The position numbers were made by a program, and so were the translations under genes. DNA of 64,000 bases from Escherichia coli (GTDB lineage: Bacteria > Pseudomonadota > Gammaproteobacteria > Enterobacterales > Enterobacteriaceae), in assembly GCF_003334815.1 (NCBI RefSeq), contig NZ_QOWO01000006.1; one strand, written 5' to 3'. Of the stretch, positions 23,522-48,667 are shown one piece after another. How positions within the stretch are numbered: the stretch's first letter is position 1; each line of letters opens with the position of its first letter. Below the pieces are notes generated by a model, which saw only the letters and a program-made list of their open reading frames with translations, was not told the DNA's origin and searched no databases.

Positions 23522-23705
<184 letters not shown>

Positions 23706-35489: not shown

Positions 35490-35605
35490 GCCGGATGCGG
35501 CGTGAACGCCTTATCCGGCCTACGAAATCGTGCTAATTCAATATATTGTGGGCTCCACGTAGGCCTGATAAGCGTAGCGCATCAGGCAGTTTTGCGTTTG
35601 TCAGC
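35490..35605. repeat. BIME (REP - linker - inverted REP) between yfeX and yfeW
   Basis: GCCGGATGCGGCGTGAACGCCTTATCCGGCCTAC ... GTAGGCCTGATAAGCGTAGCGCATCAGGC. Confidence 0.85.
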
Positions 35606-45390: not shown

Positions 45391-45410
45391 AATGGCAAGG
45401 TTTGTAACCT

Positions 45411-45446
45411 GTAGACCTGATAAGACGCGCAAGCGTCGCATCAGGC
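45411..45446. repeat. Single REP element between cysA and cysM
   Basis: GTAGACCTGATAAGACGCGCAAGCGTCGCATCAGGC. Confidence 0.75.
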
Positions 45447-45469
45447 AACACCACGTATGGATAGAGATC

Positions 45470-46381
45470 GTGAGTACATTAGAACAAACAATAGGCAATA
45501 CGCCTCTGGTGAAGTTGCAGCGAATGGGGCCGGATAACGGCAGTGAAGTGTGGTTAAAACTGGAAGGCAATAACCCGGCAGGTTCGGTGAAAGATCGTGC
45601 GGCACTTTCGATGATCGTCGAGGCGGAAAAGCGCGGGGAAATTAAACCGGGTGATGTCTTAATCGAAGCCACCAGTGGTAACACCGGCATTGCGCTGGCA
45701 ATGATTGCCGCGCTGAAAGGCTATCGCATGAAATTGCTGATGCCCGACAACATGAGCCAGGAACGCCGTGCGGCGATGCGTGCTTATGGTGCGGAACTGA
45801 TTCTTGTCACCAAAGAGCAGGGCATGGAAGGTGCGCGCGATCTGGCGCTGGAGATGGCGAATCGTGGCGAAGGAAAGCTGCTCGATCAGTTCAATAATCC
45901 CGATAACCCTTATGCGCATTACACCACCACTGGGCCGGAAATCTGGCAGCAAACCGGCGGGCGCATCACTCATTTTGTCTCCAGCATGGGGACGACCGGC
46001 ACTATCACCGGCGTCTCACGCTTTATGCGCGAACAATCCAAACCGGTGACCATTGTCGGCCTGCAACCGGAAGAGGGCAGCAGCATTCCCGGCATTCGCC
46101 GCTGGCCTACGGAATATCTGCCGGGGATTTTCAACGCTTCTATGGTGGATGAGGTGCTGGATATTCATCAGCGCGATGCGGAAAACACCATGCGCGAACT
46201 GGCGGTGCGGGAAGGAATATTCTGTGGCGTCAGCTCCGGCGGCGCGGTTGCCGGAGCACTGCGGGTGGCAAAAGCTAACCCTGACGCGGTGGTGGTGGCG
46301 ATCATCTGCGATCGTGGCGATCGCTACCTTTCTACCGGGGTGTTTGGGGAAGAGCATTTTAGCCAGGGGGCGGGGATTTAA
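45470..46381 (+). CDS. cysM: Cysteine synthase B (O-acetylserine sulfhydrylase B, 303 aa, GTG start)
   Basis: Track ORF trimmed to the GTG at 45470 giving (M)STLEQTIGNTPLVKLQRMG; PLP-lysine motif SVKDRAA. Confidence 0.93.
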   Translation: MSTLEQTIGNTPLVKLQRMGPDNGSEVWLKLEGNNPAGSVKDRAALSMIVEAEKRGEIKPGDVLIEATSGNTGIALAMIAALKGYRMKLLMPDNMSQERRAAMRAYGAELILVTKEQGMEGARDLALEMANRGEGKLLDQFNNPDNPYAHYTTTGPEIWQQTGGRITHFVSSMGTTGTITGVSRFMREQSKPVTIVGLQPEEGSSIPGIRRWPTEYLPGIFNASMVDEVLDIHQRDAENTMRELAVREGIFCGVSSGGAVAGALRVAKANPDAVVVAIICDRGDRYLSTGVFGEEHFSQGAGI

Positions 46382-46398
46382 GGATTAATAGCATCGGA

Positions 46399-46520
<122 letters not shown>

Positions 46521-46569
46521 AAACAAAGCGCACTTTTTTAACAGTTGTTGCTGCCGACAAATGCAGTAT

Positions 46570-47304
46570 TTAATTTTCGTGAGGAAACGCCGTAAGGTCA
46601 TCAATCATTTTTTGAAGTATTGGTGAGTCCTGACCGTCACCCCATTGAAGAATTTTTGCGGTAAGCTGATGACGCGCTAGTGCATTGAGTCCCATCTTTT
46701 TAAGTTTATGGGAGATTTTACCCATGACTTTAATCTGACCGAATGCAGTTGCGTAGGTAATCATATTGCTCTGGATAGTGCTCATTTCATCGACTAGTAA
46801 TTGCGCACGAACATCCTCTTCAAGAATACTGTCCATAGCGATGTATTTCATACCCCACATAGTTTCAATTAACATTTGAGGGAAATCAGCACAGTCCAGA
46901 TCCGGCTCTTTACGGAGGCTATTTTCAAGAACGTTTAGAGCATCAGCACCTTCATCGCTGCCAAAAGGAGATTCTTCATCCCAGCAACACATATAAAGTG
47001 GATCAGTAAAATGGCACTGGAAGTTTGGGTGTGACGTTTTAACATGTAACCCAATTTCTTCATCATCAAAATAGTAGCGATCCATGAAGTTAAACTTTGG
47101 ATCTTCTTGATAGCCTTTCTTCATTTTTGCGGCAATCAATTTACTGGCTTCTTTCAGACACTGTTCTTCATTATCGAACTCTTTTGTCTGGAATTTACCA
47201 ATACTACCTACCTTGCCATAGTTGACAGCTAAACTATCCCCTTCGTAATCTATCCACCAAAATTTATTCGATTTTTCATCGTGATAAATAAAGCGTTTTT
47301 TCAT
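46570..47304 (-). CDS. yfeS: Uncharacterised protein YfeS (WGR-like N-terminal domain, 244 aa)
   Basis: Track ORF; N-terminus KFWWIDYEGDSLAVNYGKVGSIGKFQ resembles a WGR fold; clearly AT-rich coding sequence. Confidence 0.85.
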   Translation of the reverse strand: MKKRFIYHDEKSNKFWWIDYEGDSLAVNYGKVGSIGKFQTKEFDNEEQCLKEASKLIAAKMKKGYQEDPKFNFMDRYYFDDEEIGLHVKTSHPNFQCHFTDPLYMCCWDEESPFGSDEGADALNVLENSLRKEPDLDCADFPQMLIETMWGMKYIAMDSILEEDVRAQLLVDEMSTIQSNMITYATAFGQIKVMGKISHKLKKMGLNALARHQLTAKILQWGDGQDSPILQKMIDDLTAFPHEN

Positions 47305-47336
47305 GTTACCTCCTGTAAATGCCTTCCCAAAGCGGA

Positions 47337-47711
47337 TTAATTTCCTTCCGCAGGCACCGTTTTATCCGTCTGCGCAATTAACGCATGTAAAAAAGGCTGT
47401 GCGTTCTCATCGCTCTTACCGGGGATCTTCACAATATACGGCTTCCCAGTAATCGATGACGACGAAGCAACCTTATCAATAAACTGCTCGGCAGTGTCAA
47501 TGCGGTTACGGGTATTGCCGAGCTTCAGACGCAGATGAGAAACCGCTTCATAGCAGGTATGTTCATCACCGTTGCGCACAAATATCAAATCCTTTTTCTG
47601 TGCTAATCCCTCCAGCATGGCGTTGATGCGGGCTTCTTCATGGGCAGTTAACTTCGCGTAAACGGGGAGTGTCATTAGTAGTGTAATGACCAGACAAATG
47701 ATTTTCTTCAT
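47337..47711 (-). CDS. yfeK: Uncharacterised secreted protein YfeK (signal peptide, 124 aa)
   Basis: Signal peptide [19 protein letters not shown]. Confidence 0.85.
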
Positions 47712-47736: not shown

Positions 47737-47779
<43 letters not shown>

Positions 47780-47815: not shown

Positions 47816-48667
47816 ATGAGTAGTTTGTTGTTGTTTAACGATAAGAGTAGGGCACTGCAGGCGGATATCGTCGCCGTGCAGTCGCAGGTGGTTTACGGCA
47901 GCGTGGGCAACAGCATTGCCGTGCCTGCTATCAAACAGAACGGCCTGAATGTCTTTGCCGTGCCGACGGTATTGCTGAGCAATACGCCGCATTATGACAC
48001 TTTCTACGGTGGTGCGATTCCGGACGAATGGTTTAGCGGCTATTTGCGTGCGCTTCAGGAGCGTGATGCGCTGCGCCAACTTCGTGCTGTAACCACGGGC
48101 TATATGGGAACGGCATCGCAAATCAAAATCCTTGCCGAGTGGCTGACTGCGCTACGCAAAGACCATCCTGACCTATTGATCATGGTCGATCCGGTGATTG
48201 GCGATATTGATAGCGGAATTTATGTCAAACCTGACCTTCCCGAAGCGTATCGACAATATTTACTGCCGCTGGCGCAGGGAATTACCCCCAATATCTTTGA
48301 GTTGGAAATCCTGACCGGTAAAAATTGCCGCGATCTCGACAGTGCCATTGCTGCCGCAAAAAGTCTGCTTTCAGACACATTAAAATGGGTGGTGGTTACC
48401 AGCGCCTCCGGTAATGAAGAAAATCAGGAGATGCAGGTTGTGGTGGTCACTGCCGACAGCGTGAATGTCATTTCCCATTCACGGGTAAAAACCGACCTGA
48501 AAGGGACTGGCGACCTGTTTTGTGCTCAGCTCATCAGTGGCTTGCTGAAAGGGAAGGCGTTAACCGATGCAGTGCACCGAGCGGGGTTGCGCGTACTGGA
48601 AGTGATGCGCTACACCCAGCAGCATGAGAGCGATGAATTGATTTTGCCGCCGCTGGCGGAAGCATAA
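47816..48667 (+). CDS. pdxK: Pyridoxal/pyridoxine/pyridoxamine kinase
   Basis: Full-length match; [32 protein letters not shown]. Confidence 0.95.

Follow-up and report, generated by a model that had tools for sequence, protein, structure and literature searches.

The yfeS and yfeK genes of Escherichia coli lie side by side between cysM and pdxK, and the locus raises the question whether they came into the chromosome together, as one AT-rich foreign pair, or have separate histories, and what the YfeS protein might do. The window analyzed here is a stretch of 64,000 nucleotides (RefSeq assembly GCF_003334815.1, contig NZ_QOWO01000006.1), which by open reading frame (ORF) listing, megablast and RefSeq annotation is the E. 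coli K-12 cysP-cysT-cysW-cysA-cysM / yfeS-yfeK / pdxK / crr-ptsI-ptsH region. Both genes are on the minus strand: yfeS at 46570–47304 (244 amino acids, aa; ORF listing, RefSeq, Pfam) and yfeK at 47337–47711 (124 aa; ORF, Pfam, NCBIfam), with a spacer of 32 nt; a preliminary description of the window had given these coordinates and identities, between cysM and pdxK, exactly. The two genes share a transcript in K-12 yet differ in history, and yfeS is very probably an acquired accessory cassette of low-GC origin, separate from yfeK.

Base composition separates the genes. GC content, GC at each codon position and the codon adaptation index (CAI; Sharp-Li weights) were computed for the 38 annotated genes of the window, the other 36 serving as reference (GC 53.0%, sd 3.1; third-position GC, GC3, 58.4%, sd 5.7; CAI 0.361, sd 0.094). 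yfeS has a GC content of 39.2% (z −4.4) and a GC3 of 36.6% (z −3.8), i.e., the atypical composition looked for in acquired DNA, whereas yfeK is mildly low (GC 46.4%, z −2.1; GC3 51.2%, z −1.25) and stays inside the local range, comparable to crr (47.3%) and yfeN (45.2%). CAI is ordinary in both (yfeS 0.331; yfeK 0.249). The pair had been proposed to be markedly AT-rich, which holds for yfeS and not for yfeK.

The genes also differ in distribution. Searched alone by megablast, yfeS is present in 1387 of 5426 complete E. coli genomes (25.6%), whereas yfeK and the flanking genes are present in all 5426, so that about 74% of the genomes have yfeK without yfeS. The natural prevalence of yfeS is probably below this figure, the collection being rich in laboratory derivatives of K-12. 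The yfeS alleles fall into two identity classes, of at least 99% (1223 records) and about 97% (165 records). A wider scan covered one genome per species for about 100,000 species representatives, and the best 80 of 186 relatives were kept. Among these 80 there is no representative of another enteric genus, and full-length close copies occur only on Escherichia-like contigs. The two contigs with a close copy are a syntenic one binned as "Pseudocitrobacter" (L010), with 90–94% nucleotide identity to E. coli, and a 585-bp contig of Escherichia sp. MOD1-EC7003. A 240-bp contig labeled Alkalicoccobacillus (L067), 97% identical over 79 residues, is probably a contamination. The other relatives among the 80 are 31–58% identical and come from Paenibacillus, Bacteroides, Dysgonomonas, Bacillus, Clostridia, Flavobacterium, Neisseria, Eikenella, Fusobacterium, Porphyromonas, and Exiguobacterium. 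In a protein search the nearest YfeS proteins outside Escherichia are at most 65% identical, and the named ones belong to Bacillota or Bacteroidota (Paenibacillus, Bacteroides, Dysgonomonas, Lysinibacillus). The gene is also missing in Salmonella Typhimurium, and its distribution is thus patchy, with absence from a sister genus, as in acquired DNA.

In strains lacking yfeS the flanking genes meet at one clean junction. The empty site is identical in 5/5 such strains inspected (O157:H7 EC4115 and four others, 94.6–98.6% identical to K-12 over the matched part of the query) and reads TAA-GA-TTA, 2 bp separating the stop codons of cysM and yfeK. Relative to this site, K-12 has an extra segment of about 950 bp. 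Its left border is the stop codon of cysM (cysteine synthase B; 45470–46381, plus strand; ORF and RefSeq annotation), a core flanking gene, and it is flanked by the 8-bp direct repeat GGATTAAT. The left copy lies at 46382–46389 (exact string search and junction comparison) and the right copy, which overlaps the yfeK stop codon, at 47334–47341 (string search). The variable segment includes a bacterial interspersed mosaic element (BIME; 46421–46518) between the convergent cysM and yfeS. This element had been described on the cysM side, and inverted-repeat and pattern searches confirm it as two inverted intergenic repetitive extragenic palindromic (REP) units (about 46421–46451, and 46485–46518), the second of which matches the REP pattern exactly against a chance expectation of 0 matches. 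The BIME is missing along with yfeS in the empty-site strains and is present in L010. The C-terminus of YfeK changes at the junction as well, from ...PAEGN* in yfeS-plus alleles to ...PAQ* in empty-site alleles.

Divergence between K-12 and L010 sets yfeS apart as well. Synonymous divergence (dS) is 0.12 for yfeS, 4–5 times lower than for the flanking genes (cysM 0.54, crr 0.59, ptsI 0.47), and 1.1 for yfeK. In a sliding comparison a peak of 95–100% identity is confined to yfeS, with a drop on either side. A low-divergence tract beginning in the middle of yfeK was considered and is ruled out by this profile and by the dS of 0.61 in the 3′ half of yfeK; the tract is essentially yfeS. The gene is thus younger than the split of the K-12 and L010 lineages, which have since exchanged it at this one site. 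In L010, its GC content is 40%, and that of the adjacent cysM 57%. The contig has further features of its own (L010 2407–5482): a membrane protein of 515 aa with an EAL domain is encoded between crr and pdxK, pdxK is diverged, and a gene of 149 aa separates it from yfeK. The Pseudocitrobacter label is doubtful.

Within Escherichia, the ratio of nonsynonymous to synonymous divergence (dN/dS) of yfeS is 0.15–0.20 versus 0.01–0.04 in the core flanks, which shows purifying, yet relaxed, selection. Decay is seen in several strains. An IS1 insertion sequence (IS) lies within the gene in strain LR-03, an IS3-family element replaces the BIME/cysM side of yfeS in strain GF4-3 (L007 1–669), the gene is truncated in strain ET650, and it is split into fragments of 101–155 aa in Shigella flexneri. 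The cassette has, since its arrival, moved among Escherichia lineages, probably via homologous recombination in the conserved flanks, and is frequently lost or disrupted.

In these respects yfeS is like the strain-specific single-gene insertions of E. coli that spread by recombination in their flanks: it is either cleanly present or replaced by the one common empty site, its base composition is unusual, it has diverged less than its flanks, and it decays through IS elements and truncation. It is unlike them in its borders, which have no integrase, tRNA or IS, include a host-type BIME, and rewrite the last codons of yfeK. These differences weigh against a simple insertion. No mobility signature (integrase, IS or tRNA site) was found in 46382–47341. 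The empty site is AGATTATT; against it the flanking 8-bp repeat is imperfect and falls short of an exact target-site duplication. BIMEs are elements of enterobacteria, which rules out a Gram-positive donor for this one. As the origin of the empty allele, deletion between the two repeats was considered and is rejected, because the product would keep ...PAEGN*. With an imperfect repeat, no mobility gene and an enterobacterial BIME in the segment, insertion is the probable rather than the certain original event, the alternative being an ancient deletion, and recombination between the repeats does not account for the empty allele.

The opposite history would make yfeS a native gene, AT-rich on account of a protein rich in Lys, Glu, Asp, Asn, Ile, and Phe, and absent elsewhere through a single ancient deletion. 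The ordinary CAI would agree with it, as would the BIME in a cassette without mobility gene and the one junction shared by all five strains, as a single event would give. This history is nevertheless very unlikely. Third-position GC, on which the amino-acid sequence has little hold, is 36.6% versus 58.4% in the reference genes, no homologue from another enteric genus is among the best 80 relatives or in Salmonella Typhimurium, the dS of yfeS is far below that of its flanks, and the empty junction differs from the deletion product expected of the repeats.

Carriage of yfeS on a true mobile element was looked for among plasmid and phage matches, and none was found among those checked. A 70%-identical "plasmid" match is an error-ridden chromosomal fragment carrying ptsI-crr-pdxK-yfeK-yfeS-cysM, and Listeria "phage" and "plasmid" matches are chromosomal pieces encoding only a stand-alone C-terminal domain with 31% identity. 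PLSDB lists as "plasmid" several records that are whole chromosomes or pieces of them, including one from E. coli that is full of frameshifts, and these give false plasmid matches for chromosomal genes.

For yfeK, the evidence is of another kind, and the horizontal acquisition that had been suggested for the pair holds for yfeS (composition, presence in a quarter of genomes, clean empty site, low dS) and fails for yfeK. Besides its presence in every complete genome and its local-range composition, yfeK is syntenic in Salmonella Typhimurium, near cysM and pdxK, with 86% amino-acid identity. There, the slot between yfeK and cysM holds a different gene, encoding a 179-aa membrane protein annotated "transglycosylase domain"; what occupies the slot 3′ of yfeK therefore varies from one enteric genus to another. 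In the same genome (L090 1898–4915), pdxK and yfeK are separated by ptsJ and a glutamine-amidotransferase-like gene. In O157:H7 EC4115 (L002 2585–2952), yfeK is annotated as a frameshifted pseudogene, an A-run near its 3′ end being one base shorter than in K-12. The YfeK protein belongs to DUF5329 (Pfam E = 5.6e-31) and to NCBIfam NF007646 (276.7 bits versus a cut-off of 171), and it has no relative in the PDB by sequence search. Its N-terminus is like a typical signal peptide, with a putative cleavage site after 19 residues, before KL. On this start and the DUF5329 match, the earlier proposal that YfeK is a small secreted protein is plausible. yfeK is best explained as an ancient gene of enterobacteria, passed on vertically, whose small product is exported and belongs to the σE envelope-stress regulon.

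The σE consensus is GGAACTT-N16-TCAAA. Upstream of yfeK, at 47745–47772 on the minus strand, a sequence search finds the closely similar GAAACTT-N16-TCAAA (yfeKp), and with it sequence and published induction together indicate a σE promoter. yfeK is included in a σE promoter set (PMC3326320), and yfeK-yfeS has been described as a single operon under a sigma-24 promoter (PMC11502571). Transcripts of yfeK and yfeS rise together with rpoE upon loss of a restriction-modification system (PMC2685091), and both rise under the envelope stress of jammed autotransporter secretion (PMC6850105). A Shine-Dalgarno sequence of yfeS, AGGAGG, read from the sequence at 47309–47314 (minus strand), lies within the spacer 4 nt before the ATG, and no terminator-like site was found in the spacer. 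Co-transcription of yfeS with yfeK from the σE promoter is likely. The cassette would have landed directly behind yfeK with its own strong ribosome-binding site and no promoter, and yfeS would therefore come second, after yfeK, on a transcript driven by σE. With the σE-regulon genes yfeK, htrG, and degP, yfeS has in common a σE-type promoter upstream and induction alongside rpoE and upon envelope stress; unlike the typical envelope proteins of that regulon, its product is cytoplasmic and foreign. Its membership in the σE regulon looks like an accident of the landing place.

The close arrangement of the two genes could also suggest one co-acquired two-gene module, either a toxin with its antidote or a secreted protein with its chaperone, as was implicit in the joint treatment of the genes in the preliminary description. 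They are adjacent on the same strand, closely spaced and co-induced, and overexpression of yfeK arrests growth, whereas overexpression of yfeS has no effect in liquid culture (PMC2685091). Such a module is most improbable and is already contradicted by the distribution, yfeK standing without yfeS in most E. coli genomes and in Salmonella. The constant co-occurrence and co-evolution of a type II toxin-antitoxin pair are not seen. The dS values against L010 (1.1 and 0.12) and the compositions differ, YfeK is predicted to be exported and YfeS has no signal peptide, and DUF5329 is not among the 20 commonest families in either Pfam scan of the neighbors of YfeS homologues. Since yfeK is core and yfeS is strain-variable, results on the K-12 "yfeK-yfeS operon" should not be generalized to E. 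coli as a species.

YfeS is among the remaining K-12 genes of no assigned function. Gene and status are already on record, and the absence of a known function stated earlier for both genes agrees with the literature found on them. What is new here is the split between yfeS and yfeK, the population and divergence evidence, the definition of a family for the C-terminal domain (C-domain), and the association with immunity-gene arrays.

The YfeS protein is cytoplasmic, without signal peptide, and consists of a WGR domain (about residues 1–72) followed by a conserved all-α domain (about 73–244). The WGR-like N-terminus that had been noticed is confirmed by Pfam (PF05406, residues 9–71, E = 1.2e-17). 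A profile of 49 homologues, searched against the PDB, matches the WGR of 2ra8 (residues 1–70, E = 3.3e-23) and the PARP3 WGR 2eoc (E = 4.5e-4), and finds WGR matches only, none to the C-domain. The eponymous motif itself is altered to N-Y-G-K (family consensus VNYGKxGxxGK), in which G30 is invariant, Y replaces W, and K replaces R. These substitutions are conservative, so the assignment to the WGR fold stands. The first 70 or so residues are thus like the WGR of PARP1–3, of the Bacteroides fragilis protein Q64V53 (2ra8), and of E. coli MolR/YehI-type WGR+DUF4132 proteins. Unlike PARPs and MolR, YfeS has the triad Y-G-K, and it lacks DUF4132 as well as the catalytic and regulatory domains of PARPs.

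The second domain had been described as a Cys/His-rich acidic region. It is acidic (isoelectric point, pI, 4.6, compared with 8.6 for the basic WGR part and 5.0 for the whole protein). The Cys/His-rich part of the description is not upheld, as its 172 residues include no more than 4 Cys and 6 His, no cysteine of YfeS is invariant in the 49 homologues (C49, in the WGR part, is nearly so), and the sole invariant His is H92. The AlphaFold2 model is one compact two-domain body (pLDDT 96, pTM 0.92), in which the C-domain is confidently predicted as all-α and not as a metal-cluster-like tail. Pfam matches only the WGR, and neither Pfam nor NCBIfam has a family for the C-domain. Structural comparison finds no enzyme-like relative of YfeS and none solved or characterized for the C-domain. 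Structure prediction and remote-homology searches yielded solved relatives of the WGR and no solved or characterized one of the C-domain, a conserved domain that merits its own family entry. The alignment of the 49 homologues has a mean column identity of 53% and is conserved across phyla, with S12, K14, W16, G30, G36, K60, G64, and Y65 invariant in the WGR part and T90, H92, Y104, P113, G115, D117, G119, D121, K192, and G195 in the C-domain; the invariant polar motifs of the family are TSHP, PFGSDEGxD, and QIKxxG.

Several candidate affiliations were rejected. A resemblance of PFGSDEGxD to DUF4259 is not borne out, since no such Pfam match appears even at E ≤ 10. YfeS is not a PARP, having no ART domain; Pfam recognizes the WGR only, and the all-α C-domain has no ART-like structural match. 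A link to MolR, which had come from UniProt labels on stand-alone C-domain proteins, was rejected as well, as there is no DUF4132 and, when the C-domain profile is compared by hhalign with residues 1–500 of a WGR+DUF4132 protein from E. coli, the probability is 0.2%. Stand-alone C-domain entries (e.g., A0A7G7W935, A0A6S7AIA0) are labeled "MolR family transcriptional regulator" or "molybdate metabolism regulator," and by sequence comparison this label looks like annotation drift.

The WGR suggests a function as nucleic-acid-binding sensor or regulator, in which the WGR would sense DNA or RNA ends or damage, as in PARP1–3, and the α-domain would transmit the signal or bind a partner. The match to the domain is clear and extends to the PARP3 WGR, this part of YfeS is basic, K14, W16, K60, G64, and Y65 are invariant in a strongly conserved family, and yfeS rises after attack of the restriction enzyme on the chromosome (PMC2685091); the WGR has been described as a putative nucleic-acid-binding domain (PMC8285248). 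The induction by DNA damage, though, tracks rpoE and yfeK and so runs through σE. YfeS has no helix-turn-helix or catalytic partner domain, its motif reads Y-G-K, the closest solved WGR (2ra8) is an uncharacterized B. fragilis protein and no DNA enzyme, and the neighbors of the homologues are not DNA-repair genes. A role of this kind is rather unlikely.

Conservation of the C-domain directs attention to another possibility, a small-molecule-binding or catalytic module with T90, H92, Y104, D117, D121, and K192 as its site, and a metabolic or stress-chemistry role, e.g., one linked to boric acid. The invariant polar residues in three motifs across phyla would fit such a site, and cysteine-synthase genes adjoin homologues in Gracilibacteraceae and Fusobacterium. 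In a ΔyfeS mutant, the minimal inhibitory concentration of boric acid drops from 100 to 45–50 mM, and complementation is partial, to 65 mM (PMC11502571). This phenotype, on the other hand, is weak, only partly complemented, and common to many unrelated mutants, and the C-domain has no Pfam or NCBIfam family. The catalytic or ligand-binding role is unlikely, slightly more so than nucleic-acid sensing.

Gene neighborhoods and domain fusions of the homologues offer a different lead. A profile search with the C-domain yields 768 clusters at 50% identity, in which the domain occurs alone (about 175 aa), behind a WGR as in YfeS, or within larger proteins that carry DUF4253, DUF4240, TPR or extra WGR domains; these fusion partners are themselves uncharacterized. 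Clustering of the neighbors over 79 loci shows recurrent partners in unrelated phyla. Loci of Fusobacterium, Clostridium, Paenibacillus, Bacteroides, Muribaculaceae, and Flavobacterium have arrays of small same-strand genes around the homologue, with the Pfam families SMI1_KNR4, SUKH_5, SUKH_6, DUF4241, DUF6630, DUF4253, DUF1963, UPF0167, DUF4303, ankyrin, and TPR. Mixed same-strand arrays of this kind were described as "heterogeneous polyimmunity loci" (Zhang, de Souza, Anantharaman, Iyer, Aravind 2012, PMC3482391), and orphan SUKH immunity genes were shown to be protective for Bacteroidales (PMC12247911). Among 100 unselected nearest neighbors, Imm68, DUF1963, DUF4253, SMI1_KNR4, and ankyrin occur twice each among many housekeeping enzymes. 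Tandem arrays with recognized immunity families are a minority of the homologue loci and include neither the E. coli locus nor most others, and further contigs have only acetyltransferase, flavodoxin, and amidohydrolase neighbors, which are uninformative.

YfeS is like the cassettes of polyimmunity loci (PMC3482391) and the orphan immunity genes of the Bacteroidales rAID systems (PMC12247911) in being small, cytoplasmic, and without enzymatic signature. In several phyla, homologues stand in same-strand arrays with SUKH, Imm68, ankyrin, DUF1963, and related genes, some of them fused to the co-occurring domains, and the patchy, horizontally driven presence of yfeS at strain level is similar too. 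An immunity-type function would therefore be suggested by the domain fusions, the immunity-gene arrays, the match to the loci of PMC3482391, the acidity and compact fold, and the harmless overexpression. By this analogy and guilt by association, YfeS may tentatively be regarded as an orphan immunity-type binding protein, a possibility that is more doubtful than not. It would be a cytoplasmic, non-enzymatic protein with a basic WGR packed rigidly on an acidic all-α domain, which would neutralize or sequester a toxic protein, incoming or endogenous. The E. coli protein would be an orphan without a nearby cognate toxin, switched on by envelope damage.

A number of points weigh against an immunity-type YfeS and set it apart from polyimmunity loci. 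No toxin gene was recognized adjoining any homologue in the loci inspected, in a search that was not exhaustive. A 1586-aa neighbor in one locus (L011), considered as a toxin, is a Ser/Thr-plus-His signaling kinase, and others are TPR proteins or UvrA-like. The E. coli gene, like the homologues at most loci, is a solitary one with housekeeping genes around it. The YfeS family is not among the Imm families in the main text of PMC3482391, where no mention is made of WGR, DUF4253 or DUF4240 as an immunity domain either, and PADLOC matches neither YfeS nor YfeK. The sequence conservation of YfeS is much higher than usual in immunity proteins, and the mean column identity of 53% with invariant polar motifs is more in keeping with a ligand or catalytic site than with a rapidly evolving toxin interface; the dN/dS of 0.15–0.20 is without sign of an arms race.

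The complete explanation, in which a foreign cassette is co-transcribed from the σE promoter and encodes an immunity-type protein, has somewhat less than an even chance of being right in all its parts. If it is, an acquired protective gene gained stress-responsive control merely by landing behind a resident promoter; if the immunity guess is wrong, yfeS stays an ordinary accessory gene. The immunity-gene arrays together with the DUF4253 and DUF4240 fusions offer a concrete functional lead. More speculatively, and with lower odds than the orphan-immunity assignment, the WGR with the unclassified all-α domain could represent an unrecognized, widespread anti-toxin family, circulating among gut and oral bacteria of several phyla, of which the E. 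coli orphan was wired by chance to a σE promoter; envelope damage from toxin delivery would then switch on protection.

Further features and observations concern the flanks and the wider family. pdxK (47816–48667, plus strand; ORF and RefSeq) is the divergent core neighbor of yfeK. The mechanical ORF of cysM, 45392–46381, begins 78 nt 5′ of the annotated start (329 versus 303 aa), and the annotated start at 45470 was used. Among relatives of YfeS, a homologue 49% identical to the E. coli protein is encoded in a metagenome-assembled genome (MAG) of a Methanomassiliicoccaceae archaeon from a gut-type sample (L040 4008–4712), by either inter-domain transfer or a binning error. Cysteine-synthase (PALP) genes lie near several homologues (L038 2310–3248, L047 4990–5928, L064 10245–11255, L005 14058–15062). 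In two Gracilibacteraceae MAGs a PALP gene is directly upstream of the homologue, in Fusobacterium nucleatum and F. animalis one is within a few kb, and in Escherichia the neighbor is cysM, at 45470–46381 in the window. CysK is known as a cofactor of a contact-dependent inhibition toxin; the adjacency of cysteine synthase and YfeS may be a coincidence. REP units of the same type as those of the BIME occur elsewhere in the window at 35490–35523, 23571–23604, and 23671–23704, the first of which is an exact match to the consensus and is the unit to which the BIME of L010 aligns.

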